Notes: generated by a model from the sequence alone, not told the origin. DNA of 64,000 nucleotides from an uncultured Methanosarcinales archaeon (GCA_964510085.1 CAZEAB010000001.1:78583-142582), one strand, 5' to 3'. Counted from the first letter of the stretch, positions 3,232 to 54,692 are shown. Made by a program: numbers and translations.

Positions 3232-3301
3232 GTGAGCAAGGCCCTAGCTTGCTGAGCTGGCTACAATTGAAAATTGTAGGAGTCCGGCGTGCCTAGCTCA
3301 C
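3232..3301 (+). repeat. GC-rich structured intergenic element, copy E1 (candidate ncRNA or REP-like element)
   Basis: GTGAGCAAGGCCCTAGCTTGCTGAGCTGG-CTACAATTGAAAATTGTAG-GAGTCCGGCGTGCCTAGCTCAC. Ends pair (GTGAGC/GCTCAC). Shares the core with six other copies. Confidence 0.8.
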
Positions 3302-3354
3302 ATGGAACGCTAACTGAATACTGTTTTTTTCAAATGCAAGAACAGCCGAAAAGG

Positions 3355-3362
3355 TTTATATA
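3355..3362 (+). promoter_or_regulatory. TATA box (TTTATATA) with purine-rich BRE-like AAAAGG upstream, for nop5
   Basis: Ends 22 nt before the ATG at 3385. The same spacing recurs at many genes in the window. Confidence 0.55.
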
Positions 3363-3384
3363 AGTTACGAATTATTGACAAGGA

Positions 3385-4140
3385 ATGGAACACATCCTCG
3401 GAAAAGTAAAAGAACCATTACAACACTTTAAAGATAAAAAGTACTTCGAAGAATTCTACAAAAAAAATGTTATTATCACAAAAAAAGCAATAAAAGAATC
3501 GGTTAATGAAGATAATCTTATTATACAAGCAATTGCAAACGTAAATGAATTAGATAAAGTAACAAACCTTCTCAGCAAAAGATTACGAGAATGGTATAGC
3601 CTATATGATCCGGAACTTGTTGAAAGAGTACATTCTCATGAGAAACTGATTGAATTAATACTTGAAAACGAAAAGAAAGAGAAAGATTCAATGGGCGCAG
3701 ACCTTCCAAAAGTAGATTATGATGAAATTATTCTCTTAGCAACACAAATTCAAGGATTATATGGATTACGAAAGAAACATGAAACATATCTTGAATCTGT
3801 AATGAAACCTTATTGTCCAAATATCTTAGAATTAGCTGGAACCACGGTTGGAGCAAAATTAGTAGAACTTGCAAAAGGATTAAAACGATTAGCTTTACTT
3901 CCAGCTTCAACAGTTCAATTATTAGGGGCAGAGAAAGCACTTTTTAGGCACTTGAAAACTGGAAGCCGTAGCCCTAAATATGGAGTAATTTACCAACATC
4001 CTTTAATTCAAGGGGCTAAAAGAGATGAACGTGGAAAAATGGCACGTAGATTAGCTGACAAATTATCATTATGTGCACGTTTAGATTTCTTTAAAGGCGA
4101 GTTTAAAGCAGACGAGTATCGAAAGGAGTTAGAGAAATGA
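3385..4140 (+). CDS. nop5: C/D box snoRNP protein Nop5 (Nop56/58 family), short form
   Basis: NOSIC/Nop-domain sequence (..NLIIQAIANVNELDKVTNLLSKRLREWYSLYDPEL.., ..GAEKALFRHLKTGSRSPKYGVIYQHPLIQ..). 4-nt overlap with fibrillarin. Confidence 0.85.
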   Translation: MEHILGKVKEPLQHFKDKKYFEEFYKKNVIITKKAIKESVNEDNLIIQAIANVNELDKVTNLLSKRLREWYSLYDPELVERVHSHEKLIELILENEKKEKDSMGADLPKVDYDEIILLATQIQGLYGLRKKHETYLESVMKPYCPNILELAGTTVGAKLVELAKGLKRLALLPASTVQLLGAEKALFRHLKTGSRSPKYGVIYQHPLIQGAKRDERGKMARRLADKLSLCARLDFFKGEFKADEYRKELEK

Positions 4141-4808
4141 GTAGAAGAATCAAAGAACATAAACTGTTCGAAATATACCAAGAACGTGGAAAACGAATCT
4201 TTACTAAAAGTATTGTCAAAGGCCAGAATCCTTTCGAAGAACGAATTGTAAGAGACGGCGGAGAAGAATATAGAGAATTTGACCCAACTAGAAGTAAACT
4301 AGCTGCAATGATTATGAAAGGATGTACTAATATTGGTATCCGAAAGAGTGATGTTGTACTCTATCTTGGAGTTGCGCATGGATATACTGCTTCATTCGTC
4401 TCAGATATGGTCCAAGACGGTATTATCTTTGGAATAGATCCTGCCCCGAGAGTAATTCGAGATTTAATATTTTTAACAGAAAAAAGAAGTAATATTGTGC
4501 CGTTATTAGCAAGTGCAAATCATCCTGAAGAATATGCACATCGAATTTGTGAGGCAGATATTGTATATCAAGACGTTGCACAGAAAAATCAACTAGACAT
4601 CTTCATGAAAAACGTTGATCAGTTCTTAAAGAAAGGTGGTTACGGTTTACTTGCAGTTAAAGCACGAAGTATTGATATTAGAAAGAAACCAAAACAAATT
4701 TTTGTAGAGATTAGAGACATACTAGATAAAAAGTATAAAGTAATTGATTACAAAATTCTGGACCCGTATGAAAAAGATCACTGCATGATTATTATCAAGA
4801 AACAATAA
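4137..4808 (+). CDS. flpA: fibrillarin-like rRNA/tRNA 2'-O-methyltransferase
   Basis: 223 aa with SAM-binding ..VLYLGVAHGYTASFVSDMV.. and ..VYQDVAQ.. motifs. Classic nop5-flpA pair. Confidence 0.9.
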   Translation: MSRRIKEHKLFEIYQERGKRIFTKSIVKGQNPFEERIVRDGGEEYREFDPTRSKLAAMIMKGCTNIGIRKSDVVLYLGVAHGYTASFVSDMVQDGIIFGIDPAPRVIRDLIFLTEKRSNIVPLLASANHPEEYAHRICEADIVYQDVAQKNQLDIFMKNVDQFLKKGGYGLLAVKARSIDIRKKPKQIFVEIRDILDKKYKVIDYKILDPYEKDHCMIIIKKQ

Positions 4809-5332
4809 TGGAATGCCCTAAAATAATTGTTGTGGACAAAAAAAATAATTTTCTTAGTGTAGACACGTTTACTAATGCTCTTGAAAATGAATCTGTTAGA
4901 CGGATTGTACGAGTTTTAGTCTATAATTCAGGAAATAAGATTTTGTTGCAAAGAAGAGGCACTAGTACGCCTATCTTTCCAGGAATGTGGGACACTTCTG
5001 CTGCAGGACATGTAGACGAAGGAGAAGATGCTAAGACGGCAGCTTTACGTGAACTTCATGAAGAAGTAGGTATTTCTAATGTCTCTTTAAATCAAATACA
5101 TGAAGCATACACTAAGGAAATTTCGGGAGAATTATCATTACATTGTTATGCAATAATTTATTCTTGCATGTTTGAAGGTGAGATTAAAGTAGATGGTGAA
5201 GAAGTATTGGAAGGGAAATGGTTTTCACCTGAAGAACTTAGAAATGAAATTGAAAAGAACCCAGATGATTTCACACCTGGATTAAAATTAACATTAGAAA
5301 AACATGAAACTTTGTATTCAAAAGAGTTATAA
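4808..5332 (+). CDS. NUDIX hydrolase
   Basis: Nudix box GHVDEGEDAKTAALRELHEEVGI (GX5EX7REUXEEXGU). Confidence 0.8.
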   Translation: MECPKIIVVDKKNNFLSVDTFTNALENESVRRIVRVLVYNSGNKILLQRRGTSTPIFPGMWDTSAAGHVDEGEDAKTAALRELHEEVGISNVSLNQIHEAYTKEISGELSLHCYAIIYSCMFEGEIKVDGEEVLEGKWFSPEELRNEIEKNPDDFTPGLKLTLEKHETLYSKEL

Positions 5333-8147: not shown

Positions 8148-9047
8148 ATGAAACGAAACATTATCATATTCATAATTCTTGCGCTACTAGTTGTAGCTGG
8201 TTGTGACACCGAAGAAGCACCTACAGAAACTGCAAAAGTATTCTTAGGTGGAACTGATGGAGTCACTGCATCTTTTGAAGCATTTGGTGTTGCGGAAGAT
8301 GGAACATATACTATTTTTGATGAAGATACTTTCTCCATTGATGTAACTTTAAAGAACAAAGGAGAATACGATGTTAAAGCTGAAGAAGTAAAAGTTAACT
8401 TATTAGGCCCATCACAAGATGAGTTTACAGGGATTACATCTTGGGAACTTAAAAATTCTAATATTATTGATATGAAATCAGAATTAATCCCTGAAGGTGG
8501 AGAAGAAACAATAGATTTTGCAAGTGAAGCAAAATACAAGAGTAAAGTAATTGCATTTACTGACAGAGTTTGGTTTGCAAACATTGAATATGTATATCAA
8601 ACAAAATTAATCATTCCTGAAGCATGTTTGAAAGAAGATCTTGCTGACGAACGAGTTTGTGATGTAAAAGGAGATAAAACATTTCATGTCTCTGGGGCTC
8701 CAGTAACAGTTACAAATGTAGAAGAAAGTGTTGCAGGTAAGGGAATTATGGCACTTAAAATTACTGTAGAAAAGAGAGGAAATGGAAAAGTTGCCCAACC
8801 AGATAACAAGTTCTCAGCTACAAAAGAAGAATTTGCATATACAATTGACGACGAAGCATGGAAGTGTACTTCAGCTGGACAAGAAGGTAAAGCTCGTTTA
8901 ATTGAAGGTAAAGCAGACATCGTATGTAAATCAAGAGAACCTCTTGAAGAAGGAACACTTGCAACAAAACAAATTAGTCTTACATTAGATTACAAGTATC
9001 AAGACTTAGTGCAAGAAACACTTCGAATTAAAGAGAGTGCAAAGTAA
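8148..9047 (+). CDS. secreted lipoprotein, paralog 2
   Basis: Signal peptide plus lipobox LLVVAGC. Shared blocks with 7134..8078: NKGxx, VCxxxxV.G.PV.V.NV, I.KRGNGKV, L.L.Y.Y. GAGG Shine-Dalgarno-like sequence upstream. Confidence 0.55.
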   Translation: MKRNIIIFIILALLVVAGCDTEEAPTETAKVFLGGTDGVTASFEAFGVAEDGTYTIFDEDTFSIDVTLKNKGEYDVKAEEVKVNLLGPSQDEFTGITSWELKNSNIIDMKSELIPEGGEETIDFASEAKYKSKVIAFTDRVWFANIEYVYQTKLIIPEACLKEDLADERVCDVKGDKTFHVSGAPVTVTNVEESVAGKGIMALKITVEKRGNGKVAQPDNKFSATKEEFAYTIDDEAWKCTSAGQEGKARLIEGKADIVCKSREPLEEGTLATKQISLTLDYKYQDLVQETLRIKESAK

Positions 9048-9780: not shown

Positions 9781-10724
9781 CGTAACACCGAAAATGCTAA
9801 GAAACTTTCTAATTGAACGTATTCATCTGCACCTTCAACCATTCTAAACTCAATTTCCCCACATTTATCAATTAATGTAACTTTCTTTCTATCTTCAATT
9901 TCTAAATTCCAAATCTCTTTTTGAATTTGTTTAATAATATCTAATCCAGATAAACCATAATTTAACATTAAATCTAATAATTTCTTACGAGAAGACACAA
10001 AATCTCCTCCAACGGCAAGAGACAACACTTCATTTATTTCCTTCGGCTTCGCAACAGAAGCCATTGAATATACTAATTCTACATCAATCTCTTTCTTAAT
10101 TACAGCACAACTCTGTAAAATATTTTCTAAACGCCTGCAATCTCCACCACATACTTCAAATAACGCTTTCTTAGCATCTTCTCCAATAGTTAACCCCTCA
10201 GAGATTATCAGTTTGTCAATAACTTTAAACACATCTTCTTCTGCTAACGGTTTAAACCTAAAAACTGCGCATCTACTTTGAATAGGATCAATTATTTTTG
10301 AAGAATAATTACATGATAAAATAAATCTACATGTTTTAGTATAATTCTCCATAGTACGACGAAGTGCTTGTTGTGCATCTCGAGTAAGAGCATCACTTTC
10401 ATCTAAGTAAATTAATTTAAATGGAACATTTCCAATAGCCCTCGTACGAGCAAAATCCTTTACTTTTACTCTAATGACATCAATCCCTCGTTCATCTGAT
10501 GCATTTAATTCTAACGTATTTGCTCGCCATTCTTCACCAAACAATTTCTTAGCAATAATAAGTGACATCGTTGTCTTCCCTACACCTGCAGGTCCACTAA
10601 AAAGTAAGTGAGGCATACTTCCCGATTCAACAAATGCTTTAACCTTTGCAACAATTTCTTGTTGTCCATTCATTTGATCGAAAGTAGAAGGCCGATACTT
10701 TTCTGTCCAGATAGAATTTTCCAT
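9777..10724 (-). CDS. rfcS: replication factor C small subunit
   Basis: Walker A GPAGVGKTT, DESD, SRC motif (IQSRCAVF). Confidence 0.9.
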   Translation of the reverse strand: MENSIWTEKYRPSTFDQMNGQQEIVAKVKAFVESGSMPHLLFSGPAGVGKTTMSLIIAKKLFGEEWRANTLELNASDERGIDVIRVKVKDFARTRAIGNVPFKLIYLDESDALTRDAQQALRRTMENYTKTCRFILSCNYSSKIIDPIQSRCAVFRFKPLAEEDVFKVIDKLIISEGLTIGEDAKKALFEVCGGDCRRLENILQSCAVIKKEIDVELVYSMASVAKPKEINEVLSLAVGGDFVSSRKKLLDLMLNYGLSGLDIIKQIQKEIWNLEIEDRKKVTLIDKCGEIEFRMVEGADEYVQLESFLAFSVLR

Positions 10725-10962: not shown

Positions 10963-11020
10963 ACTTAAGAAAAAACACTCCTCATTTTTATTATTTTGTG
11001 TTCTTTAGATATCAATTTTG

Positions 11021-11102
11021 TGTGAATGAGCAAGGCCCTGACTTGTCGAGCCGGCTACAATTAGAAATTGTAGGAACCCGGCGTGCCTAGCTCAGAACCA
11101 CA
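11021..11102 (+). repeat. GC-rich structured intergenic element, copy E2
   Basis: TGTGAATGAGCAAGGCCCTGACTTGTCGAGCCGG-CTACAATTAGAAATTGTAG-GAACCCGGCGTGCCTAGCTCAGAACCACA. Confidence 0.8.
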
Positions 11103-11112
11103 AACCAAAATC

Positions 11113-12165
11113 TCACTTCTTCATATACACAGTTCTTGTTGGAAATGGAATACTTATGTTAGCTTTATTTAATGCGTCATAAATCCTTTCGATTGCCTCT
11201 AACTTAGGACCGTATGCTTCATCCCATCTCTCAACCCAAAATTTAGCTTCAAATGTTAATGCAGAATCTCCCATTTCAATAAAATGTACTAAAGGTTCAG
11301 GATCTTTCATAATCTTCATTGCATTCAATTCTTTCAAAATAATCTTTTTTACTGTAGCTATATCCACCCCATATTCAACACCAAAAGGAACAACTACCCG
11401 TACTTTGGGATTTGGTCTGGTATAATTCTGGATTCGTGAATTAGCTAAATATCCATTTGGAATGTAAATAATTTCATTATCAAACGTTGTTAATTTCGTA
11501 CTTCGTAATCCAATCTCATGAATCATTCCAACTTCGCCACTTTCCAATTTAATCTTATCACCTGGTTGGAAGGTTTTATCTAAAATTAATGTGATTCCAC
11601 CGAAAATATTCTTTAATGAATCTTGTAATGCTAAACCTAATACGATTCCACTAATTCCCACCCCTGCAAGATAAGGGCCGATATCTATCCCCCAAATCTT
11701 GAGAATCCATAGAAGTGCAATAATCACAAAAATGACATTTATTATTTTATGAAATAATGGAAGAAGAACATCATCAAGATTTGTTTTAGTCTTCTTCGCC
11801 ATGGTAATACCCCATGTTTCAATAATTACATCAATAGTACGGAGAACAATAAGCACAATAACTGCAGCCATAACTGAGTTAACTACTTTAGAAGCTGTTC
11901 CCGTAATTCCTGTTGTCAGAACAGCTGTTTTTAATCCATATGCTAAAACTAAATAAAATAAAGGTTTTTTTGTATGGTTAAGAACCATATCATCAAATTC
12001 TGTTTTAGTTTTCTTAGCAAGTCGTTGAAGATAATGTGAATATACAAATAAGAGAGCAATCCCCACTAATACAAAAAGAGCTAACACAAACCCTCCATGA
12101 ACGAATACGTTCTGTTCATACCCACCAAGAGGCAATGTTTCTATTAATTTGATGAATCCTTCCAT
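11113..12165 (-). CDS. mechanosensitive ion channel, MscS family
   Basis: TM helices followed by the MscS beta-domain (..FQPGDKIKLESGEVGMIHEIGLRSTKLTTFDNEIIYIPN..). Confidence 0.8.
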   Translation of the reverse strand: MEGFIKLIETLPLGGYEQNVFVHGGFVLALFVLVGIALLFVYSHYLQRLAKKTKTEFDDMVLNHTKKPLFYLVLAYGLKTAVLTTGITGTASKVVNSVMAAVIVLIVLRTIDVIIETWGITMAKKTKTNLDDVLLPLFHKIINVIFVIIALLWILKIWGIDIGPYLAGVGISGIVLGLALQDSLKNIFGGITLILDKTFQPGDKIKLESGEVGMIHEIGLRSTKLTTFDNEIIYIPNGYLANSRIQNYTRPNPKVRVVVPFGVEYGVDIATVKKIILKELNAMKIMKDPEPLVHFIEMGDSALTFEAKFWVERWDEAYGPKLEAIERIYDALNKANISIPFPTRTVYMKK

Positions 12166-21105: not shown

Positions 21106-22824
21106 TTATGTTGAAGAATTTTCTGAAACAACATCTTTCTTTAATATAGCATCAAGTAATCCTAAATATAATGGATGCGGATGTAATGGTTTTGAGATAT
21201 ATTCTGGATGACATTGCACTCCAACAAAATAAGGATGTATCTCTCGAGGTAATTCTAAAATTTGCATAATCTCTCTTCCTGGAGCTTTTCCACTAAATAT
21301 CAATCCGTTTTCTTCTATTTGCTTGATGTACGAAGGATTACACTCCCACCTATGCCTAAATCGTTCTCGTACTAATAAAGAACCATATAATTCTGCAGCA
21401 AAACTTCCTTCTTTTATTTCAACATCATGACCCCCTAACCGCATATTTCCTCCTAAAGAATCAATATTCTTTTGTTCTGGAAGTATGTCTATAACAGGAT
21501 GTGCACATTCTTTGTTAATTTCAGTACTATGCGCGTCTTGTAAGCCACATACATTTCGAGAGAATTCAATTATAGCCATTTGAAACCCGTAACATAATCC
21601 TAAATAAGGTATTTTATTTTCACGAACGTATTTAATACAATTTATTTTTCCTTCAGCTCCTCGAGATCCAAAAGCCCCAGGTACAATAACTCCATCAACT
21701 CCTGCCAAAATTTCAGAAACAGTAGATAAGTTAGTGGTATCAATCCATTTCAGTTTTACGGTTACTCCTCTTGTTGTTCCAGCATGTTCAAGAGCTTTGA
21801 TGATTGATGCATACGAATCTCGTAACGAAGTATATTTCCCAGTAATTCCTATGATTATTTCTCTTTTCTTCTTAATGAGGGTTCTATTTACATATTCTTC
21901 CCACCTATCCCTTGCTTCATAATCACAGTTTACTCTATCACGTATACCAAGAATGTCAATAGTTTGTTCATCTAAACGAGATTTTTCTAATAATTTTGGA
22001 ATAAGGTAAATACTCTCAACGTCATGTGTACTTACAACTCTATCAACAGGAACGTTTGAAGCAATACTTATCTTCTGTCTTACTTTATCTGTTACAGGCA
22101 CGTCACACCTACATGCAATAATGTCTGGTTGAATTCCGCACGACATCAGAGCACGTAACCCAAGTTGTGCCGCTTTACTTTTCTGCTCACCTAAAAAACT
22201 TGGATTTAAAACATATGTTAACGCTACATGACATACATTCTTTTTTCCTTCTTCATACTGTAATTCTCTCATTGCTTCAATGTAATGGCTATTTTCTAAA
22301 TCTCCAACAGTCCCACCTATTTCTATAAAAACAACATCTGCTCGAGTTTGTAATGCTAAAGAACGTAAACGATATTTAACCTCTCCAGTTAAATGTGGAA
22401 TAAATTGAACATCTCTTCCCAAATAACCTCCTTTACGTTCTCTACTTAATATTGAACTAAATAATTGGCCGTTTGTAAGAAAATTTCCTGCAGTTAAATT
22501 GAATCCAAGAAACCGCTCATACGTTCCAAGGTCCATATCTGTTTCAGTTCCATCATCTAATACAAAGACCTCTCCGTGTCTAAATGGATTAAGTGTACCT
22601 GCATCAACATTTAGGTACCCTTCCATTTTAATTGAAGCAACCCGTAATCCTTTAAGACGAAGTAATTTTGCAAGAGAAGACGCAAAGATTCCTTTACCTA
22701 ATCCAGACATGACTGTTCCGGTTACAACAACATATTTTGTACTCCCTTTAACATATCCTTCAGGCATAGAATTAAAGAATTCATTCTCTTCAGTCTTTTT
22801 GGATACATCATCTAATATTGTCAT
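21106..22824 (-). CDS. pyrG: CTP synthase
   Basis: 572 aa. N-terminal synthetase (..VVVTGTVMSGLGKG..) and a C-terminal GATase with LGLCYGFQ. Confidence 0.95.
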   Translation of the reverse strand: MTILDDVSKKTEENEFFNSMPEGYVKGSTKYVVVTGTVMSGLGKGIFASSLAKLLRLKGLRVASIKMEGYLNVDAGTLNPFRHGEVFVLDDGTETDMDLGTYERFLGFNLTAGNFLTNGQLFSSILSRERKGGYLGRDVQFIPHLTGEVKYRLRSLALQTRADVVFIEIGGTVGDLENSHYIEAMRELQYEEGKKNVCHVALTYVLNPSFLGEQKSKAAQLGLRALMSCGIQPDIIACRCDVPVTDKVRQKISIASNVPVDRVVSTHDVESIYLIPKLLEKSRLDEQTIDILGIRDRVNCDYEARDRWEEYVNRTLIKKKREIIIGITGKYTSLRDSYASIIKALEHAGTTRGVTVKLKWIDTTNLSTVSEILAGVDGVIVPGAFGSRGAEGKINCIKYVRENKIPYLGLCYGFQMAIIEFSRNVCGLQDAHSTEINKECAHPVIDILPEQKNIDSLGGNMRLGGHDVEIKEGSFAAELYGSLLVRERFRHRWECNPSYIKQIEENGLIFSGKAPGREIMQILELPREIHPYFVGVQCHPEYISKPLHPHPLYLGLLDAILKKDVVSENSST

Positions 22825-22838
22825 AACATTACCTATAT

Positions 22839-22916
22839 CTTGTATGCCCGGGCCCAGACTTGTCGAGGTGGGTACAATTGTAAATTGTACGAATCCACCG
22901 TGCCGAGGGATACAAG
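22839..22916 (+). repeat. GC-rich structured intergenic element, copy E3
   Basis: CTTGTATGCCCGGGCCCAGACTTGTCGAGGTGG-GTACAATTGTAAATTGTAC-GAATCCACCGTGCCGAGGGATACAAG. Its left end is 15 nt from the pyrG start codon. Confidence 0.8.
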
Positions 22917-23021
22917 TAGTTTATTTTCTGATAAAAATTCAGAACTACCCTTATTTAAGTAGTTTCCGCACAACCTCTTGATGACGAAAAAGTTTATATA
23001 CCTCTATTATTTTGTAGAATT

Positions 23022-46917: not shown

Positions 46918-48015
46918 CTAATCCAAATGAAGTTCCAAAATATCTTTATCCTTCAACCTATGCTTTAACATAATCTTCTGACCAGGGTGTTTAGCACTTT
47001 TACCCCACACTCGAGCAAACTTAAATCGTTTTGCAAAATCTTTATGGGTTTTATCGCACACATTTCGTATAGTTGCGTTCTTAAAAATAATCATTGGCTC
47101 TTTCATGTCTGCTTCTTTCTTTGGTTCTTTCATATATACTCTAATAAAATTCAATTTTTTGAAGATTAACTCTCTTAATTCTGAAATGCCTTTTCCTTCA
47201 TGTGCAGATATAGCAATATCTGCATTTATGCTCTTACGAACTTTCCGAATCTGAGATGCAGAAGCAGTATCTGATTTGGTTATACAAATAACAGCAGGAA
47301 CGTATTTCTTATTCCCCTCTATACAATCTATCAAAGCATCAATATCAATTGGAGATCTAATTAAGACATCCGCATTAACCATTTTAAATTCACGCATAAC
47401 ATCTTTTATTGTTTCGTCATCAACTTCTGTAGGGACAGTTCTTCCTATGTTTAAACCCCCCATCCCTCTTTTCTTGATAAAAACTTCTGGCTTCGTTTTA
47501 TTAATTCTAATATGTGCATCATTTACTTCTTTTAAAATTGCAGGAAAATGTTCTGGTGTATTTACATCAACCACAATTAATACTAAATCTGCATTTTGAA
47601 TTACAGTTAATACTTCTCTACCTCTTCCTTTTCCAGAAGCTGCTCCTGAAACAATTCCTGGAACGTCTAGAATCTGAATTTTTGCTTGTTTATAATCCAT
47701 CGTACCTGGTACAACAGACAATGTTGTAAATGCATATGCACCAACTTCTGATTTTGCACCAGTTAGTTCATTAAGTAATGTTGACTTACCTGCAGAAGGA
47801 AATCCGAGTAATAATACGGTCCCATCTCCTGATTTTCTCACTGAGTAACCGTAAGATGAAGACCCCGTTTTTTTAGCAGTTCTTGAAGCACTTTTCTCCT
47901 TAAGCATCGCAATTTTTGCTTTAACTCTTCCAATATGGTGCTGCGTTGCCTTATTGTACTTTGTCTTCTTTATTTCGTCCTCGAGTTCTTTAATTTGCTT
48001 GGAATAATCAACCAT
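46918..48015 (-). CDS. developmentally regulated GTP-binding protein (Drg/Obg-like) with TGS domain
   Basis: G1 GFPSAGKSTLLN, G3 DVPG, G4 TKSD, C-terminal TGS. Confidence 0.85.
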   Translation of the reverse strand: MVDYSKQIKELEDEIKKTKYNKATQHHIGRVKAKIAMLKEKSASRTAKKTGSSSYGYSVRKSGDGTVLLLGFPSAGKSTLLNELTGAKSEVGAYAFTTLSVVPGTMDYKQAKIQILDVPGIVSGAASGKGRGREVLTVIQNADLVLIVVDVNTPEHFPAILKEVNDAHIRINKTKPEVFIKKRGMGGLNIGRTVPTEVDDETIKDVMREFKMVNADVLIRSPIDIDALIDCIEGNKKYVPAVICITKSDTASASQIRKVRKSINADIAISAHEGKGISELRELIFKKLNFIRVYMKEPKKEADMKEPMIIFKNATIRNVCDKTHKDFAKRFKFARVWGKSAKHPGQKIMLKHRLKDKDILELHLD

Positions 48016-48082
48016 ATGCTTAAACTGAAAGAGGGGTATTTAACTCTTACGTTCAAAAACAAAGGATTTACTATTTTATTTT

Positions 48083-48156
48083 GTGTGAGCAGAGCACGCC
48101 GGACTCCTACAATTTTCAATTGTAGCCGGCTCGGCAAGCCAGGGCGCTACCCACAC
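48083..48156 (-). repeat. GC-rich structured intergenic element, copy E4 (inverted orientation)
   Basis: The reverse complement reads GTGTGGGTAGCGCCCTGGCTTGCCGAGCCGG-CTACAATTGAAAATTGTAG-GAGTCCGGCGTGCTCTGCTCACAC. The inner hairpin is identical to E1. Confidence 0.8.
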
Positions 48157-48187
48157 AACCATATACGCAAGTGACAAAAACAAAGAT

Positions 48188-48195
48188 TTTATAAA
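48188..48195 (+). promoter_or_regulatory. palindromic TATA box (TTTATAAA) for gene 48218
   Basis: 22 nt upstream of the ATG at 48218. Lies between E4 and the gene. Confidence 0.5.
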
Positions 48196-48217
48196 GTTTT
48201 TAGTTAAATATGGTAAT

Positions 48218-48757
48218 ATGGTGGGTGGAATTATTGATACTCTTAAATCGTATGCTTTAGATATAGTAGTAGGCATTATTATTTTGATAGTAGGATTTGG
48301 GCTAGGAATTCTTGCAAAGAAAGTTATGAGAAGAATTCTCAAAGAAGTTCATCTTAACAGAGTTATGAGTAATGTTGGCATTACACATAATATAGAAAAG
48401 GCAATAAGTAACATAGTAATGTATCTTATTTACTTATTCACTATCATCTACTTTCTTGATTATTTAGGTATTACCTCAGTAGTTGTATATCTTATAGCAG
48501 GAGCTATTCTTGCTCTCTTAATCTTAACATTACTTGTCGGTTTAAAGGACGTTATTCCAAACTTTTTTGCATGGATTATCTTACAAAGAAAAGGTAAAGT
48601 AATTGTAGGAAGAAGAGTAGATGTAAAAGAAATTTCGGGAGTTGTAGAGAAGATTGGATATCTTGAAACTGAAATTAAAACAGAGCGTGAAGATATTTTA
48701 TATGTTCCAAATTCATTATTCTTAAAAACTAAATTTTGGGTAAGAAAAAAACATTAA
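48218..48757 (+). CDS. small MscS-like membrane protein
   Basis: TM-helix repeats, then ..GRRVDVKEISGVVEKIGYLETEIKTEREDILYVPNS.. MscS beta-domain-like segment. Confidence 0.5.
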   Translation: MVGGIIDTLKSYALDIVVGIIILIVGFGLGILAKKVMRRILKEVHLNRVMSNVGITHNIEKAISNIVMYLIYLFTIIYFLDYLGITSVVVYLIAGAILALLILTLLVGLKDVIPNFFAWIILQRKGKVIVGRRVDVKEISGVVEKIGYLETEIKTEREDILYVPNSLFLKTKFWVRKKH

Positions 48758-48759
48758 AT

Positions 48760-48996
48760 CTAATTCTTACAACTTTCTAATAAACTAATTACATCCCATA
48801 TTTGGGTTCTATGGTATGAAGGCATTTCAAATGTGTTTAGTTCTTCTAATTCAAGTAACGCTTTATTAACACATAATTCTTGTTCACTTCCTAATAATGT
48901 AATGATTTTAGTTGTCTGGTCTTTACATCGTTTACTAAAATCTCGTTCTTCTTGTAATTCTTGTAAGAAATCTATTGCTTCTTGAACTTCACTCAT
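48760..48996 (-). CDS. small helical protein (UPF0147-like)
   Basis: 78 aa, helical, downstream of and overlapping prefoldin beta. Confidence 0.35.
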   Translation of the reverse strand: MSEVQEAIDFLQELQEERDFSKRCKDQTTKIITLLGSEQELCVNKALLELEELNTFEMPSYHRTQIWDVISLLESCKN

Positions 48997-49300
48997 CTTT
49001 CATTTCCTTAACTGCTTCCTTTTGAAGAGATTCCATTGATGTTTTCAATTGAGCTTCCTGGGAGATAAAACTTTTTAATCGAACTTCTGCGTTTTCTTTC
49101 TGTTCCTTTAAATCTGAAACTAATTTGTCTGAAGGAGTTGCAATCATTATCTTTCCTACAATTTTATATGTTTGAGAAGTGCTTGCAAGTTCAGATATTG
49201 CAGAATCTAATTCTGTGATTTGTGTTTCTAATTGTTGCTTTTGAGCTAGAATATGTTGTAAATTTTGCTGAACTAATTGTAATTCTTCAACTTTTCCCAT
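48989..49300 (-). CDS. pfdB: prefoldin beta subunit
   Basis: 103-aa coiled coil - beta hairpin - coiled coil (..QTYKIVGKIMIATPSDKLVSDLKEQ..). Confidence 0.8.
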   Translation of the reverse strand: MGKVEELQLVQQNLQHILAQKQQLETQITELDSAISELASTSQTYKIVGKIMIATPSDKLVSDLKEQKENAEVRLKSFISQEAQLKTSMESLQKEAVKEMKDE

Positions 49301-49304
49301 TTTC

Positions 49305-49439
49305 TTATCGGGCTTTTACTGTAACGACAGTCCGTCTGTCTTTAAATAGAATTTTAAATCCACAGTAAGGGCATCTTACTTTAGACCTAGTATACTCGTC
49401 ATCTACTTTTTTTCCGCATTGTAAACATAGATAATACAT
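49305..49439 (-). CDS. rpoP: DNA-directed RNA polymerase subunit P (Rpo12)
   Basis: Internal start MYYLCLQCGKK...VRCPYCGFKILFK zinc ribbon. Begins 2 nt after the eL43 stop. Confidence 0.75.
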   Translation of the reverse strand: MYYLCLQCGKKVDDEYTRSKVRCPYCGFKILFKDRRTVVTVKAR

Positions 49440-49440
49440 T

Positions 49441-49632
49441 TTATACCGTGTACGCCTTTCCAGCGAATTTTGTTTCACACTTAGAGCATTCCCAAATTCC
49501 AACAGCTTCTCGTTTTACTGCAGTTTTATTACAATAAGGGCACTTATGCTTAGATCTTTGAACTTTTTCAATCTGTGCAAACTTCTTCTTCGGTTTTCGT
49601 CCGTATCGTGCTCCAAATCTTTTTATTGACAT
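49441..49632 (-). CDS. rpl37ae: ribosomal protein eL43 (L37Ae)
   Basis: Start at MSIKRFGARYGRK... CPYC...CSKC zinc ribbon. The upstream part of the ORF-track frame overlaps the tRNA and is not coding. Confidence 0.85.
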   Translation of the reverse strand: MSIKRFGARYGRKPKKKFAQIEKVQRSKHKCPYCNKTAVKREAVGIWECSKCETKFAGKAYTV

Positions 49633-49658
49633 TTTTGTTTCCTCGTATGTGAATAAGA

Positions 49659-49733
49659 TGGGGTTGCCCGGATTTGAACCGGGGTCCAATGGCCCCAAAC
49701 CATCGATGCTAAACCAAGCTACACTACAACCCC
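49659..49733 (-). tRNA. tRNA-Pro (anticodon UGG)
   Basis: The reverse complement GGGGTTGTAGTGTAGCTTGGTTTAGCATCGATGGTTTGGGGCCATTGGACCCCGGTTCAAATCCGGGCAACCCCA folds as a cloverleaf: 7-bp acceptor, T-arm CCCGG/TTCAAAT/CCGGG, anticodon loop TT-TGG-GG. No encoded CCA. A TTTATAAA box lies just upstream. Confidence 0.9.
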
Positions 49734-49845
49734 AATAGTCAGTTTATAAACCTTGCGGTTAAAAAACAAACATTGTTTATTCAAGAGGAGATACCTCATT
49801 TAAAAGGTTTATGGTTAAATTAGCCATGTCTGGAATAGGGCATTT

Positions 49846-49918
49846 TTGTATACTAGCGCCCTGGCTTGCCGAGCCGGGTACTCGCAAGAGTACGAATCCG
49901 GCGTGCCCTAGTATACAA
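49846..49918 (+). repeat. GC-rich structured intergenic element, copy E5
   Basis: TTGTATACTAGCGCCCTGGCTTGCCGAGCCGG-GTACTCGCAAGAGTAC-GAATCCGGCGTGCCCTAGTATACAA. 11-bp closing stem. AAAAGGTTTAT box ~35 nt upstream. Confidence 0.8.
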
Positions 49919-49949
49919 TTTAATGCTATTCCAGGTAAAACTGGTTAAA

Positions 49950-50981
49950 TTAGTACCCTTTAATAGAGTGTAATTCTTTACTCGCCACAGTTAAAACCTT
50001 TAACTTTCCATTAAAGATAACTGTGTCTTCTATTCGTAAACCAAACTTACCTGGAAAATAAATGCCTGGTTCAATTGTAAAAGGGACATTATATTTTATT
50101 TTTCCATTTGTAAACACAGGATTTTCATGAACTTCTAACCCAATCCCGTGACCTAATGAATGGATAAACTTCTTTTCATGTTTACCAAGAGATTTTCTCG
50201 CCTTTGTATCTAAATCTTTATACTTTACTCCTTCCGCTATAGCTAAGCGAGCATCTTCTTGAGATTTAAATAACAAATTATACCAACCAACTTCTTCCTT
50301 TGAAGGTTTTCCTAGAAAAACCATTCTTGTCATATCTGCGCAATAATTTTTGTACTTTGCACCAAAGTCAATAAGTAAGAAACCTCGTTGTAATTCTGAG
50401 TTACTAGTAATGTGGTGGGGTATGGCTGCATTCTTCCCCATAGCGACGATTGTTGGAAATGCGACTTCTCCTCCCTCATTTTGAAAATGTCTTTCTAGAA
50501 AGAACGCTACATCTTGTTCTGTATGTAATGATTTTTTTGGTAATTCTTGAAGTAACGCATCAAATGCATTTGAAGTAATTTTACACGCTTTAGAGATACA
50601 TCGAATTTCTTTCTTTGTTTTTGTTTCCCGCAATGTTGATAATGTAGAAGAAACATCAACTACCTTTGCTTTAGGAAACATCTTCTTCATATTCTCTAAA
50701 GAAGATACTGTTAATGATTGTTTATTCACCCCTAATTTTGCTGTCTTCTTAGATAACTTCTTCTTCCAATCTTTACTAAAATATTGCACATCGATTCCTT
50801 CTATTTTCTTCATCTTATCTAATTTTGTAATAAGAAAAGTTGCTTTCCTTGGTGTTATACAAAGAACTGCATGAGATGGGGCCATTTGCGTAAAATATGT
50901 AATACAAGGATCCGGATGTGTGAATATCGCTACACCTATTTTGTTTTTACGTAAGTATGATTGAAATTCTTGAAGTTTCAT
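49950..50981 (-). CDS. Xaa-Pro aminopeptidase/dipeptidase (M24B)
   Basis: Metal ligands in ..LLIDFGAKYKNYCADMTR.. and ..HSLGHGIGLEVHE.. and ..FTIEPGIY... Confidence 0.85.
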   Translation of the reverse strand: MKLQEFQSYLRKNKIGVAIFTHPDPCITYFTQMAPSHAVLCITPRKATFLITKLDKMKKIEGIDVQYFSKDWKKKLSKKTAKLGVNKQSLTVSSLENMKKMFPKAKVVDVSSTLSTLRETKTKKEIRCISKACKITSNAFDALLQELPKKSLHTEQDVAFFLERHFQNEGGEVAFPTIVAMGKNAAIPHHITSNSELQRGFLLIDFGAKYKNYCADMTRMVFLGKPSKEEVGWYNLLFKSQEDARLAIAEGVKYKDLDTKARKSLGKHEKKFIHSLGHGIGLEVHENPVFTNGKIKYNVPFTIEPGIYFPGKFGLRIEDTVIFNGKLKVLTVASKELHSIKGY

Positions 50982-51021
50982 TGTATGAATAAAACAACCA
51001 CCATTTAATTACTTTTCTTAA

Positions 51022-51091
51022 TGTATGCCTGGGCCCTGGCTTGCCGAGGCGGGTACACGTAGTGTACGAATCCGCCGTGCCATGGCATACA
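51022..51091 (+). repeat. GC-rich structured intergenic element, copy E6
   Basis: TGTATGCCTGGGCCCTGGCTTGCCGAGGCGG-GTACACGTAGTGTAC-GAATCCGCCGTGCCATGGCATACA. Ends 3 nt from the stop of the upstream gene. Confidence 0.8.
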
Positions 51092-51094
51092 AAT

Positions 51095-51676
51095 TTATTT
51101 TTTAACTGATGAATGCCTAATATGTAACAAAGCATACGCAACCATAATAAGTGCAACAATACCAAATACAATCAATAGAACTATTGGAAACTTCTTTTCA
51201 CTTCTTTTTTCTACTTCAAATTCCTGCACGGCTTTCTCAATATCCTGCACTATTTTATCTTCTACAAATGGAAATAAATCAATAAGTAATTTCTCTTCTA
51301 ATTTATCATCATACACCCGTATAACAACCGCATCTTCATAATATGGAACATAAATTTTGTGTTTCACATAATCTAAGGTAGTTGTGCCGCCGCCAACTAC
51401 CTTACCATTTTCATCTACATTATCATAAAGAATTGTGTGAGGAATAGAGAAATATGTTAAATTACGTAACTCAAAATCGTATGCAAGAACTTCTGCAATA
51501 TAATCTGCACCAAGATTCTCTAAGACTTCGGAAGAAGGAATAACTCTCACTAAAGATGTAGAAAGATTTCCTTTATTATATTCTACATCAATCTCGTAAT
51601 AGTTCGCTCCAATTACCCCTGGCAATAATATTAATAATACTATTACCAAGAACACATGTCCTTTATATCGTCGCAT
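51095..51676 (-). CDS. hypothetical surface protein (N-terminal signal/anchor plus C-terminal TM)
   Basis: 193 aa. MRRYKGHVFLVIVLLILLPG.. N-terminus and a C-terminal hydrophobic helix. Last gene of a three-gene operon. Confidence 0.4.
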   Translation of the reverse strand: MRRYKGHVFLVIVLLILLPGVIGANYYEIDVEYNKGNLSTSLVRVIPSSEVLENLGADYIAEVLAYDFELRNLTYFSIPHTILYDNVDENGKVVGGGTTTLDYVKHKIYVPYYEDAVVIRVYDDKLEEKLLIDLFPFVEDKIVQDIEKAVQEFEVEKRSEKKFPIVLLIVFGIVALIMVAYALLHIRHSSVKK

Positions 51677-53838
51677 CCTTCTTTACTTATTCCTCCTCTG
51701 TCACAGAGTATTTTAAATTTACTACAATGAATTTTATGTTCTTGACTTCCCCATTCATATTCCCCTGATTCTTCATGAATCAAATCTATATAACATGCTT
51801 CATGAGCACATTCAATATGGGTTGCAATATCTTCTTCAATATTATTGCAACCATACGCTCTTATACACCCCTTTCCTGGACCCCTACTGTTTTTTTCCGT
51901 ACTTAGCTTCGCCCATTCTTCTGCATTCACTCCTGCAACCACTTTAGGTCCTAAACCAACCCCATAAGGTAACTTTCCATCTATTTTAGCAACTGCTTTC
52001 CATTGATCTTCAAAGGTTTCCACTTTATCTGAGTCATATAATTTTTTAAATTCAGCTGCTTCTTCAGAAGTTATTGGTGCGGGAGAATAATCTACATATC
52101 CTAACTCCTCGTATTTAACTGAAATAAATCTACCTCTACGATATCTTGGTTTATTTATAGTAACCCCTTTAAATTCTCTCTCTATTAACTTTCCATCTTG
52201 CACAACTAACTCAACCCCATATTTTTTCTCTAGCAATCTCTTATAATGTAATGTGAGAGAATTCTGTTTTGCCTTTCTATCTTGTTCGTTTTGATTATTA
52301 TGAAATCCGTGGCCAGCTTCATGTGCTAATATTGCTTCGGAAGGTGTGTGATGAACAATCATTCTATTCGTCCAACTCATACATCCTGCCGATTTTTTAC
52401 CACAATGTTTCTGAACATCTTCTACCAAGTGAATTTCTTTAATGGATTTCTGTAAAGTGGGAGGTAAATCTCCTAACTTTGTATTTAAATCAGGAATATC
52501 TTGAACACGGATAGCTCCTTCGAGTTTTATGCCTGTATCTTTTGTAAATCTTCCTTTCGCCTGATGTAACGCAACAGTGCTTTTACCAAAATCTAACGCA
52601 CAAGAGGTACATTCAAATTCCTCTCTTTCTGTAGAAGTTGTAAGAATATTATTTTTTGAATCTGTAACTAACCTCATATTTTTGCCTTGTAAGACAAGAG
52701 GGGTGGAATGAACCTCTATTGTTTCATACGTTTTTGTTCCATCCGGATGGGTAACTATTTTTCTCCGTTCAGGAAGCATCCTATATTCAATTTTTCCTTC
52801 CAAACTTTTGATATCGGCTCTTCCAGAAGTAACATCCACATCTCCTTTTGTAACAATAAGAGGAACTTTTCCTTCTCTTTTTTGATAGTCTACTGAAGAT
52901 TCTATACCATCTACTTTTATAATAAATATAGTCAGTTTTTTCTTTTCTTCAAGGCCAGGAGATCCAAATTTTGTTCCTAAATTAATATTTATGTTGTTAT
53001 AAGAGTACGCTACCACTCCCTCCGTTTTTATATCCTCTCCATCTGTCCATGTTTTTGCAACAATCCTGTCCTTACTAACATAAATTCCATGAATCCCTTC
53101 CTCCCCCTCTGGAGTTTCTAACTCTTTTGGATCATCAACAATGTAAAATTTCTTTCCACTGGCAAACCTAGTCCCTTCAATCGTAATCCAAGCACTTTGT
53201 GGTAGAAAATCGCCAACTTCTATTTCTCCACTATTATATCTCTTTCCATTTACTGTAATGGGTTCTTTACCAAAAAAAACCGAATACTTTCCCTCACCAA
53301 ATGAATCACAATGTTGGTAGGGTACTATTAACATTTTTTGAGATAATTCACCAGTATCTATAGATCTCAGTGTATCAATTTTAATCTCACTAGAACGAGC
53401 AATAGAAGTACCGAGGTCAATTTCTGTCGATCCACTAGAAAGTTTGCTCCCTCTTACTTTTGTGGGGCCTTCTATTCTCTTTACTTTAACTTTAAACCCA
53501 CTATTAATTGCAACCTTTGCTTTTTCTTTATCCACTTGTGAAGTTAAATCTTCAATCTTGTTAAAGTTAAATTGTATTTGGGTGGGAGTCATACTAAATC
53601 GTTGCGCTGTACTAAGTGCTTCATATGCCAATCTGTCCGGAGGAACGTGTTGTATCCTCTCTGGAGGAATTCTGGTCCAATCAACCGTATTCCAATCCAC
53701 AACAGCATAATCTCCATTAACATAATCAAACGATTCTGGGAAAAATGCAGGAGACTCTTCGACAGCACAGACCTCTCCATCAGCGCATTCAGCTAGAACA
53801 AAAGGCACTAGCAACAATAAAACCCACCAATACCTCAT
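51643..53838 (-). CDS. large secreted protein with HExxH zincin-like motif
   Basis: 731 aa. Signal peptide MRYWWVLLLLVPFVLAEC. ..AILAHEAGHGFHNNQ... Cys-rich C-terminus. Confidence 0.5.
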   Translation of the reverse strand: MRYWWVLLLLVPFVLAECADGEVCAVEESPAFFPESFDYVNGDYAVVDWNTVDWTRIPPERIQHVPPDRLAYEALSTAQRFSMTPTQIQFNFNKIEDLTSQVDKEKAKVAINSGFKVKVKRIEGPTKVRGSKLSSGSTEIDLGTSIARSSEIKIDTLRSIDTGELSQKMLIVPYQHCDSFGEGKYSVFFGKEPITVNGKRYNSGEIEVGDFLPQSAWITIEGTRFASGKKFYIVDDPKELETPEGEEGIHGIYVSKDRIVAKTWTDGEDIKTEGVVAYSYNNININLGTKFGSPGLEEKKKLTIFIIKVDGIESSVDYQKREGKVPLIVTKGDVDVTSGRADIKSLEGKIEYRMLPERRKIVTHPDGTKTYETIEVHSTPLVLQGKNMRLVTDSKNNILTTSTEREEFECTSCALDFGKSTVALHQAKGRFTKDTGIKLEGAIRVQDIPDLNTKLGDLPPTLQKSIKEIHLVEDVQKHCGKKSAGCMSWTNRMIVHHTPSEAILAHEAGHGFHNNQNEQDRKAKQNSLTLHYKRLLEKKYGVELVVQDGKLIEREFKGVTINKPRYRRGRFISVKYEELGYVDYSPAPITSEEAAEFKKLYDSDKVETFEDQWKAVAKIDGKLPYGVGLGPKVVAGVNAEEWAKLSTEKNSRGPGKGCIRAYGCNNIEEDIATHIECAHEACYIDLIHEESGEYEWGSQEHKIHCSKFKILCDRGGISKEGCDDIKDMCSW

Positions 53839-54551
53839 TGTTCACCCCAGTTATATTGATTCACAAACGAATATGTTATATCTTCCCCATACACATCAAA
53901 AATAACATCATTATCTACTGGGATCATTTCCACTCTAACATCCATTTTTTCAGAGATATCATGTAAACAGCTAATACACAACACGCTTTCTTCTTCCTGC
54001 TTTACAAACGCAGTAACACCCTTGTGAACTTTCCCAATATCGTGGGATTTTACTGTTGTAAACACATCAAATGATCGTGCGAGAGCATCTCTCTTTACAG
54101 TTAATGGAAATGTTACATCAAATAAAACAGTATCTTTCTTAACAGCCACATTTGTTTTTGGTTCACCTACATCAAAAGTATATCCTTGATTTCTAAATAT
54201 TAAAAAATTTTGAAGACAAAAGCGGAGTTCATTATCCACATACATTCCCAGTTGTGTTTCTAATTCTTTCTTAGAAATTACATTTTGTTCTCCACCATAG
54301 TAATAATAAGGTAAATCCCCATAAGATAATACCGGAAGTTGATAATATCCCCCATGTAATGAAACATAATCGACTCCTTGTGACGCAGTTGATTCAACAC
54401 ACGATTGAACATAATTTTGTATAGAATCTCCAAGAATATCTTGAGTTTCTGAAGAACTAAAACCAGACACGAGAAAGAAGACCAACGCGGCAGTGCCTAA
54501 AATGAGAATACCAACTATGAAAAACACCGTTATTTGTCCTCTTTTGTACAT
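53835..54551 (-). CDS. putative type IV pilin-like protein (class III signal peptide)
   Basis: N-terminus MYKRGQITVFFIVGILILGTAALVFFLV resembles the archaeal prepilin signal ([KR]G|Q followed by a hydrophobic helix). Confidence 0.45.
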   Translation of the reverse strand: MYKRGQITVFFIVGILILGTAALVFFLVSGFSSSETQDILGDSIQNYVQSCVESTASQGVDYVSLHGGYYQLPVLSYGDLPYYYYGGEQNVISKKELETQLGMYVDNELRFCLQNFLIFRNQGYTFDVGEPKTNVAVKKDTVLFDVTFPLTVKRDALARSFDVFTTVKSHDIGKVHKGVTAFVKQEEESVLCISCLHDISEKMDVRVEMIPVDNDVIFDVYGEDITYSFVNQYNWGEQ

Positions 54552-54623
54552 AGTATCTAGAATTGGTTGAAGATATTTAAATCTACCCTCTAACGGCCAG
54601 TGTAGAAAATCCCAATAATCTTA

Positions 54624-54692
54624 GCATTAGAGCACGGTGGATGTCGTTCCGTCTACGACGAAACCCACCTCGGCGAGCCAGGGCGCTAATGC
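54624..54692 (-). repeat. GC-rich structured intergenic element, copy E7 (inverted orientation)
   Basis: The reverse complement reads GCATTAGCGCCCTGGCTCGCCGAGGTGG-GTTTCGTCGTAGACGGAAC-GACATCCACCGTGCTCTAATGC. Confidence 0.75.

Follow-up and report, generated by a model that had tools for sequence, protein, structure and literature searches.

The seven GC-rich elements found in the window (the whole stretch of 64 kb that was analysed) are probably copies of a non-autonomous MITE-like mobile element that behaves like the Rickettsia palindromic elements (RPEs). The host is a marine DPANN (Woesearchaeota-like) archaeon with a GC content of 34%. In common with MITEs, the elements are short (77–127 nt, within the range of 50–800 bp), non-coding and multi-copy, and they have target-site duplications. 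The original prediction had described them as either a new structured RNA or a REP-like element. Its structural part stands, supported by covariation, a fold specific to one strand and the lack of any Rfam match, whereas the idea of a family of sRNA genes gives way to mobility; the 'REP-like' half was nearer to the mark, although the element is not a REP proper.

Copies, fold and covariation

All seven predicted copies are real, and each lies at the position and on the strand originally assigned to it. A covariance model built from the seven and run over the 64 kb with filters off recovers exactly these copies at 80–92 bits each, and the matches ranking after them are their own reverse strands, at below 15 bits. 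The core pattern GCCCNNNCTYGNNGAG occurs seven times against an expectation of 0.34, and none of 100 shuffles reaches seven. RNAalifold returns the architecture that had been drawn, with P1 and its GC-rich extension (in which a C x U mismatch is invariant), a CUUG-looped mini-hairpin, P2, P3 and a bulge of 4–5 nt on the 3' strand. One detail of that drawing needs correction, in that P1 of the second copy (E2), given as GUGAGC/GCUCAC, is actually UGAGC/GCUCA, outside which lies an interrupted helix, UUUGUGUG/CACAAA.

The claim of compensatory stem changes is borne out by a set of 13 copies, comprising those of the window (E1–E7) and others from further contigs (identified below by L numbers). 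In this set 96.1% of stem cells are paired, compared with 29–51% in slid controls, double changes are seen in 22 of the 28 pairs, and not one of 500 shuffles is as good as the real alignment. G.U outnumbers A.C in the stems by 17 to 1, which shows that a single, specific strand is the one that folds. Among genomes of 30–36% GC the unpaired core does not vary. The constant junction consists of GCCC...CGUGC with the C x U mismatch, and the side hairpin is usually UGG-CUUG-CCG; the ends of P1 and of an outer helix, P0, and the stems of P2 and P3 vary by subfamily, always with retention of pairing. Every copy has inverted-repeat ends, formed by P1 and often P0, whose sequences differ between subfamilies, and the loose P1 consensus TTTGTATAC is the sole consensus seen there. 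CUUG and GNRA loops are present in the fold, and the P3 loop of many copies (L024, L043, E6 and E7) is a GNA triloop closed by C-G. GNA triloops with C-G closure are typical of stable DNA mini-hairpins, and as DNA both strands of the element fold equally well. No reading frame stays open across the copies, and the element thus has no adaptation to coding.

Strong covariation is by itself insufficient proof of an RNA gene. The elements match no named RNA family in Rfam, as had been proposed: no family hits them anywhere in the window when gathering thresholds are applied, and none does at E ≤ 10 over positions 48000–54800, which contain four copies, the families concerned including tRNA, H/ACA and C/D sRNA, self-cleaving ribozymes and group II domain V. 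The suggested likeness to a tRNA T-arm is not supported. No tRNA model matches at E ≤ 10 over positions 48000–54800, the only ARAGORN call in the window is a tRNA-Pro, and the 'T-loop' residues are variable (GAAU, GAGU, GAAC, GAUGU, AGUAU and CUCU in different copies). The hallmarks of an archaeal H/ACA guide RNA are a variable guide pocket, a K-turn or K-loop in the upper stem and a single-stranded ACA 14–15 nt from the pocket. Most copies do have an ACA 12–15 nt 3' of P2, but there it pairs with UGU of P1; the 'pocket' is invariant and partly folded as the covarying mini-hairpin, and tandem G.A pairs are absent, so that this class, too, is rightly set aside.

Extent of the unit and evidence for insertion

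The extents first reported are too short for the unit, most copies running 15–24 nt further on each side. There is a short form of ∼77 nt (P1-core-P1') and a long form of ∼105–127 nt, with arms of 15–24 nt that are often paired as P0. The extended copies are E1, E4, E5 and E7, which reach 13–24 nt further on each side and all four of which are bounded by direct repeats, and the additional helix P0 is found in E1, E5 and E7.

On the basis of its boundaries and the fold of the extended region, E1 occupies 3212..3323 on the + strand (core 3228–3305; covariance model score 85.1 bits), with P0 formed by 3216–3226 and 3311–3321 and a target-site duplication of TTTTTTTCTA on the left (3202..3211) and TTTTTTTCAA on the right (3324–3333; p = 0.035). 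E4, on the − strand at 48070..48174 (core 48081–48158; 92.1 bits), is flanked by direct repeats AAATC(C)TTTGTTTTTG at 48054–48069 and 48175–48189 (p = 0.005) and lies directly downstream of the TATA box TTTATAAAA (48187–48195) of a gene for a DRG-type GTPase. E5 extends over 49824..49941 on the + strand (core 49845–49919; 85.4 bits), as delimited by its fold and by alignment with the empty sites of L052 and L053; its P0 pairs 49829–49838 with 49926–49935, and the duplication, TGGTTAAATTAG at 49812..49823, has its right copy at 49942–49953 (p = 0.0025), within which lies the stop codon of an M24 peptidase gene. The last copy, E7, covers 54595..54721 on the − strand (core 54619–54697; 83.2 bits), with 54703–54721 and 54595–54613 paired as P0 and a 7-bp duplication, GTTAGAG, at 54588–54594 and 54722–54728, and is situated 14 nt downstream of a TATA box at 54734–54743.

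The remaining three copies, all on the + strand, are defined by their cores. E2 (11022..11099; 81.6 bits) has only degenerate candidate direct repeats (11001–11014 and 11117–11129, not significant) and neighbours an MscS-like gene identified by Pfam (11113–12165, − strand), whose stop codon is 10 nt before the element. E3 (22839..22916; 84.7 bits) is located in the divergent region between genes for CTP synthase (−) and an ABC ATPase (+), without a recognisable target duplication. E6 (51020..51093; 80.4 bits), with candidate repeats of low complexity only, follows the stop codon of a gene encoding 193 aa by 3 nt, at the edge of a lineage-specific insertion of three genes.

Comparison of filled and empty sites is clean for E5, where 118 nt have been inserted and 12 bp, present once in L052, have been duplicated; the empty site of E7 is also recognisable in L052. 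E5, E6 and E7 are missing from all three syntenic relatives (L052, L053 and L054, with GTPases 77–89% identical), and the E4 site in L052 holds a different family member. Symmetric flanking direct repeats accompany nine of the 13 copies (7, 9, 10, 10, 11, 12, 12, 15 and 18 bp; combined Fisher p = 1.1e-6), the four without a recognisable duplication being E2, E3, E6 and L004. Three copies, E7, L053 and L034, make up one P0/P1 subfamily and sit at unrelated loci with different duplications. That the family might turn out to be a MITE with target-site duplications had been named from the start as the outcome that would tell against the original prediction, and the 12-bp filled and empty site of E5 and the flanking repeats of the nine copies are of just this kind. 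Together with the absence of copies from the syntenic sites of relatives, they mark the elements as copies of a mobile element and not as conserved sRNA genes. The insertion targets are AT-rich. Different family members occupy one and the same site in different lineages, both in the MscS/GTPase spacer and in the glmS linker, which calls for either a strong target preference or the replacement of one copy by another.

The copies had been called strictly intergenic, which is correct within the window but cannot be said of the whole family, since a homologue lies inside the coding sequence of glmS. The glmS of L024 carries the element in frame and reads through it, giving a protein of 601 aa in place of the usual 575–580 by virtue of a 26-codon insert, and in the orthologous gene of L060 (606 aa) the insert is a 27-codon, mini-hairpin-less variant. 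The element is antisense in both, at the same linker position, and at least three lineages have 26–27 extra codons in this linker with the frame kept. The inserts are only 78–81 nt in length, with space for a few bases of duplication at most. We know of no earlier archaeal report of in-frame insertion into an essential gene by such an element.

Mode of spread and alternative explanations

As a MITE-like element, the mobile unit would be a long imperfect hairpin that inserts into AT-rich DNA and duplicates 7–18 bp of its target. The copying machinery would recognise one folded single strand by way of its GC-rich junction, the intermediate would be a single strand of either RNA or DNA, and spread would be limited to those copies that keep the fold. 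We infer that the three-way-junction core serves as the recognition module and is what mobility requires. Recognition of the fold by the copying machinery would give rise to covariation without function at individual loci, and some copies could have been recruited by adjacent mRNAs as leaders or 3'-end hairpins.

Seven elements per 64 kb correspond to about 109/Mb, matching the ∼105 MITEs/Mb of one Woesearchaeal genome in a 2024 MITE-Tracker census (PMC11602168), which supports the MITE-like reading. Neither a transposase nor a reverse transcriptase adjoins any copy examined in ∼81 kb of the genome and ∼20-kb pieces of relatives, as expected if the element is non-autonomous; even so, the failure to find an autonomous partner within the ∼81 kb counts against this reading. 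So does the range of duplication lengths, which exceeds that of most transposases, and so does the combination of conserved interior and variable termini, the reverse of a classical MITE, in which the terminal inverted repeats bind a DDE transposase. The four copies that show no duplication, and the two sites held by different family members in different lineages, tell against it as well.

Spread by way of an RNA copy, which we regard as unlikely, would involve a small structured RNA (mature and bounded by P1, or a longer armed precursor) that undergoes reverse transcription and enters AT-rich targets at nicks, its core either recruiting a reverse transcriptase or being itself catalytic. SINE-like retroposition of this kind would give duplications and units of variable extent, and so would explain the duplications of 7–18 bp, the presence of both short (∼77 nt) and long (∼105–127 nt) units, the termini that differ between subfamilies, and the RNA-style fold of one strand, with its G.U pairs and its CUUG and GNRA loops. 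Several copies also lie just downstream of TATA boxes and would therefore be transcribed. Yet the copies have no A-rich or other conserved 3' tail, with nothing A-rich abutting the 3' duplication, no 5' truncation series and no internal promoter, and no reverse transcriptase is seen near any of those examined. Archaeal promoters are external, so that new copies would be mostly silent, and the many C-G-closed GNA triloops in P3, together with the equal folding of both strands as DNA, point away from RNA. To our knowledge, a prokaryotic SINE-like retroposon would be without precedent, and we consider its existence here doubtful.

Descent from a single-strand DNA transposon is more improbable still. 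In that case an HUH/Y1 transposase, of the REP/REPIN-RAYT or IS200/IS605 (PATE) type, would act on a single DNA strand by recognising its folded hairpin. In favour of such a system are the strand specificity of the imperfect hairpin and its conserved irregularities (the C x U mismatch and the 3'-strand bulge), the GNA and GNRA loops, the extragenic location and high copy number, and the glmS inserts, which have hardly any room for a duplication. However, these systems leave no target-site duplication, which nine of 13 copies have and which the empty site verifies for E5; neither a conserved 5' GTAG nor a target tetranucleotide is present at the ends, conservation resides in the tip and not, as in REPs, in the arms, which vary here, and no TnpA or RAYT gene is seen in the ∼81 kb of genome or the ∼20-kb pieces of relatives. 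A PATE in particular makes no target duplication and inserts 3' of a fixed tetra- or pentanucleotide, and an IS200/IS605-derived PATE was rejected on account of the 7–18 bp duplications and the lack of a common flanking motif.

We give equally little credence to functional sRNA genes or cis-acting RNA modules (a protein-binding scaffold, mRNA leader, 3' stabiliser or new ribozyme) whose fold the host maintains locus by locus, despite the strong covariation and invariant core, the position of E2, E5 and E6 3–30 nt past stop codons, the neighbouring promoters that would start transcription at the 5' ends of E4, E7 and the L052 copy, and the perfect helices retained by the glmS copy of L060, although its insertion seems to be common to a lineage whose own copy has decayed. 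Besides the target duplications, the empty site and the absence of E5, E6 and E7 from syntenic sites, orientation relative to neighbouring genes is mixed (four copies upstream in the sense direction, three downstream in antisense, and both copies in glmS antisense within coding sequence), no Rfam ribozyme or sRNA model matches, and the mini-hairpin is dispensable in a type-2 variant.

Relation to known systems

The MITE-like element shares with MITEs, whose general features are described in PMC10969869, its small size, non-coding nature and multiple copies, inverted-repeat ends that turn the whole unit into a long hairpin, short direct repeats of the target, AT-rich intergenic target sites and a density of ∼100 per Mb. 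It differs in being GC-rich in an AT-rich genome, in having a conserved internal three-way junction with termini that vary by subfamily and change compensatorily, in the folding of one strand (17 G.U, 1 A.C), in duplications of 7–18 bp, and in the absence of any related insertion sequence or transposase from the ∼81 kb of genome and the ∼20-kb pieces of relatives. RPEs are palindromic elements of ∼100 bp, with an unknown mechanism of mobilisation, that are found between genes and in frame inside genes for housekeeping proteins, where translation turns them into peptide inserts that are tolerated (PMC10969869). The glmS linker, with its 26–27 extra codons, is likewise an in-frame, translated-through insertion. 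The likeness drawn here is one of behaviour. RPE hosts are bacteria, unrelated to the archaeon described here; RPEs are reported to conserve a frame that encodes peptide, while in these elements none is kept open, and just one intragenic site has been seen.

REP/REPINs are also extragenic, high-copy, strand-specific imperfect hairpins, and are believed to be recognised in folded, single-stranded form. In a REP it is the palindrome arms that are conserved, together with a 5' GTAG, and the target is not duplicated; the elements described here have variable arms, a conserved tip, duplications and no conserved GTAG. Integron attC sites similarly place structure over sequence, being imperfect hairpins with conserved extrahelical features of which one folded strand is recognised, but the elements have no R-box core sites (GTTRRRY), do not form a one-orientation array after cassettes and are scattered among housekeeping genes with target duplications. 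With eukaryotic SINEs they have in common a short structured unit, target duplications of variable length, subfamilies with active masters as their source and a reliance on machinery whose genes lie elsewhere, but not an internal promoter, an A-rich tail or a known partner reverse transcriptase.

DPANN archaea have tiny genomes, yet their MITE densities are reportedly among the highest of all archaea, and we know of no description of how these MITEs appear and move. The anatomy of the present family is informative in this respect, with an invariant GC-rich junction set in a freely covarying hairpin, a strand-specific fold and duplications of variable length. The covariance model provides a handle for tracing the mobilising enzyme through the genomes in which the two occur together, and for asking whether MITE-like spread in archaea passes through an intermediate of single-stranded DNA or RNA. 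It can also serve to mask spurious small ORF calls, for in public annotation a 45-aa 'gene' follows the M24 gene directly, at the place of E5.

Fold and covariation of the copies

The seven elements of the original prediction were confirmed in the window sequence at the positions and on the strands claimed for them, E4 and E7 being inverted and the others on the plus strand, and the proposed architecture was recovered by RNAalifold. The closing helix, P1, is continued by an extension rich in GC (5'-GC-C-C / 3'-CG-U-G), in which a C x U mismatch is invariant; the three-way junction bears a mini-hairpin of 3 bp whose loop is CUUG; and P2 is separated from P3 by a 3'-strand bulge of 4-5 nt. The alignment of E1-E7 contains 25 invariant columns. 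A covariance model built from these copies (R1), run on the window with filters off, returned exactly E1-E7 at 80-92 bits, the next-best matches (<15 bits) being the reverse strands of the elements themselves, and the core pattern occurs 7 times in the window against 0.34 expected.

The fold of the element is real. In a model-based alignment of 13 copies, paired cells amount to 96.1%, both sides have changed in 22 of the 28 pairs, and none of 500 shuffles was as good as the real alignment; slid controls were only 29-51% paired. The stems hold 17 G.U pairs against a single A.C, which indicates that one particular strand folds, with about two-thirds of the G.U pairs (11 of 17) coming from one conserved position. 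Folding with DNA parameters gave equally stable structures for both strands and did not tell them apart. P3 ends in a C-G-closed GNA triloop, typical of stable DNA mini-hairpins, in several copies and in a GNRA loop in others, and CUUG is a well-known tetraloop of RNA; the chemistry of the loops thus gives no decision between DNA and RNA.

At gathering thresholds, Rfam 15 matched only an RNase P RNA and tRNA-Pro in the whole window and nothing at the elements, a search at E<=10 over 48000-54800, which includes four copies, likewise gave no match to them, and ARAGORN reported tRNA-Pro alone. The RNase P RNA is archaeal (RF00373; 14620-14913, plus strand) and full length, at 136 bits. A reading as an H/ACA guide draws on an ACA at a plausible spacing, 12-15 nt 3' of P2; it fails because this ACA is base-paired, the pocket does not vary and a K-turn is lacking. 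The elements recall group II intron domain V in their GAGCCGG...GAAA...bulge arrangement, yet Intron_gpII gives no match and most copies have AGG in place of AGC. The resemblance to a tRNA T-arm noted in the original prediction fails, as no tRNA model or ARAGORN match exists and the loop residues vary. The archaeal splicing (BHB) motif was considered at the junction of P1 with the outer helix P0 and in glmS mRNA, and the 3-4-3 geometry is absent, the loops observed being either symmetric, from 4x4 up to 6x6, or a bulge of 3 nt beside a 12-bp helix. Derivation of the core from the host RNase P RNA or a tRNA is dismissed for want of any similarity.

Insertions and target duplications

The elements are insertions. 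The gene order M16 peptidase - M24 peptidase - tRNA-Pro/L37ae - prefoldin - UPF0147 - MscS - GTPase is preserved in three syntenic relatives, L052, L053 and L054, whose GTPase is 89, 82 and 77% identical to that of the window, respectively, and R1 with filters off found no copy in them at the E5, E6 and E7 positions. Alignment at the E5 site is clean: L052 has TTTAACCATAAACC as a single copy, and in the window 118 nt are inserted (49824-49941), with TGGTTAAATTAG on both sides (49812-49823 and 49942-49953), the M24 stop codon sitting in the right-hand duplication. The empty site of E7 is recognisable in L052 right after a TATA box common to both, and GTTAGAG stands on either side of E7 in the window.

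Nine of the 13 copies have a best symmetric flanking direct repeat that reaches significance (Fisher combined p=1.1e-6), with lengths of 7 bp in E7, 9 in L053, 10 in E1 and L034, 11 in L005, 12 in E5 and L043, about 15 in E4 and 18 in L052; E2, E3, E6 and L004 show none. A strain-level check of presence or absence around M24 found all contigs alike. Four duplication-defined insertions lie directly 3' of TATA-like boxes, for which no significance is claimed because the spacers are compact and AT-rich. The structured RNA or REP-like element of the original prediction is upheld as to its fold, which belongs to a mobile element and not to a conserved set of sRNA genes; membership in REP/RAYT systems, or among IS200/IS605 derivatives, is excluded by the target duplications.

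On both sides of most copies, 15-24 nt separate the model core from the duplication, and the intervening arms are frequently paired as P0, with a roughly symmetric 4-6-nt internal loop between P0 and P1. P0 (GGCTCCGTAGAAACCCTC and its complement) and P1 are common to E7, L053 and L034, which occupy unrelated loci with different duplications, so that P0 travels with the element in this subfamily. The type 2 variant, found in L060 and L052, has the junction CGCC-AAUGGA-G and no mini-hairpin; the mini-hairpin is therefore dispensable, and the invariant part is the GC-C/G-U-GC junction. The L052 type 2 copy, enclosed by an 18-bp direct repeat, occupies the spacer between the MscS and GTPase genes that holds E4 in the window.

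Host lineages and possibly re-used sites

The window has a GC content of 34% and encodes archaeal housekeeping proteins, among them L3, Nop5, RFC, a PolD with an intein and a GTPase of the DRG type; of the named homologues, those closest to this GTPase are in Woesearchaeota/Nanoarchaeota MAGs. Its contig is also present in marine metagenomes. Pattern scans of public genome and metagenome collections gave mostly chance matches in GC-rich bacteria, and a scan of a viral collection gave chance matches only; the true loci numbered just seven (five distinct copies), every one on a low-GC contig. R1 confirmed copies on contigs of 30-37% GC (L004, L024, L034, L043 and L005, the last identical in sequence to L031 and L032), and the copy in L053 is more diverged than this set. 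No further copies occur in the roughly 17 kb covered beyond the window ends. L004 and L024 carry the label Methanosarcinales, which is doubtful because the best named homologues of the L024 GlmS are woesearchaeal/nanoarchaeal.

The L024 copy lies antisense within glmS, and the ORF reads through it, giving a GlmS of 601 aa against the 575-580 aa typical of woesearchaeal GlmS; alignment places the 26 extra codons in a linker ahead of the first SIS-domain strand. The linker carries an insert at that same point in two orthologues, P0122 and P0123, and the P0123 gene (on L060) contains a 32-bit R1 match, again antisense, with P1, P2 and P3 perfect in entirely different sequences. The glmS inserts, of 78 and 81 nt, comprise the P1-bounded unit and no more than a few duplicated bases. 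Adaptation to coding is rejected, as no open frame is conserved across copies, and translation in glmS is thus tolerated, not designed. P1-derived peptides are common to P0122 and P0123 (LNTGA...SIQ), whereas that of L024 differs (LFGGA...TKQ), which suggests replacement or re-insertion in glmS. Two other woesearchaeal GlmS proteins, P0211 and P0194, have unrelated inserts of 16-22 aa at this linker position, which may be a hotspot or merely a tolerant site.

Both the GTPase spacer and glmS hold different family members (type 1 vs type 2) according to lineage. The repeats flanking the GTPase-spacer elements differ between the window and L052 and are nearly identical within each genome, a pattern that favours separate insertions at a preferred spot over one inherited insertion. 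In L053 the element-free MscS/GTPase spacer (9940-9990) reads TATA-CCTTTCTTTT-AGACAAA-CCTTTTT-AAGAG, with a short direct repeat about a 7-nt spacer at the place occupied by elements in the window and L052; this arrangement may have been left by excision or may be coincidental.

Known element classes and neighbouring genes

By the usual criteria, namely small, non-coding, multi-copy units with inverted-repeat ends, target duplications and AT-rich intergenic insertion (PMC10969869), the element is MITE-like. Its density in the window is about 109/Mb; a MITE-Tracker census includes one Woesearchaeal genome with 105 MITEs/Mb (PMC11602168). Unlike classical MITEs, it is GC-rich, its interior is conserved and its termini are variable and covarying, its fold is strand-specific, and its duplication lengths range widely. 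In-frame insertion into a gene is a likeness to the Rickettsia palindromic elements. attC sites are rejected, as R-box core sites are absent and the elements are scattered. Searches of the literature turned up no account of this family. The nature of its putative single-stranded intermediate, and of the enzyme that would recognise the junction, is potentially important.

No transposase or reverse transcriptase stands beside any copy examined. Between E6 and E7, three genes (193, 731 and 238 aa; 51095-54551, minus strand) form a lineage-specific 3.5-kb insertion, and Pfam, NCBIfam and PADLOC gave no matches to them, transposase-like or defence. E6 and E7 are not read as the ends of a composite transposon, since E7 has its own duplication and the genes between lack such matches. 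The insertion separates the old M24-peptidase promoter/leader from the M24 start codon, and this leader now stands ahead of the 238-aa gene; in L052 and L054 the M16 gene directly adjoins that for M24, and in L053 a single extra 113-aa ORF lies between the two. A nearly perfect, GC-rich hairpin of 33 nt (UAAGGUAGUUGUGCCG/CCGCCAACUACCUUACC; 51373-51405) within the 193-aa gene gave only weak, chance-level matches to R1 and a miRNA model.

Public gene calling on L061 places a 45-aa 'gene' (3534-3671) directly 3' of M24, the place of E5, and spurious ORFs in the window cross E3 (22499-22981) and E4 (48076-48342); the elements thus generate false small ORFs. The tRNA-Pro(UGG) genes of two relatives have introns at non-canonical positions, an insert of ~31 nt in the T-loop in L052 (8304-8408), where ARAGORN misses the gene, and one of ~33 nt in the D-loop in L054 (about 8303-8405); that of the window (49657-49734) has none. 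An intein bearing a LAGLIDADG homing-endonuclease domain interrupts the gene for the large subunit of PolD (DP2; 61790-64000, minus strand), which is complete in L059 and there encodes 1608 aa.
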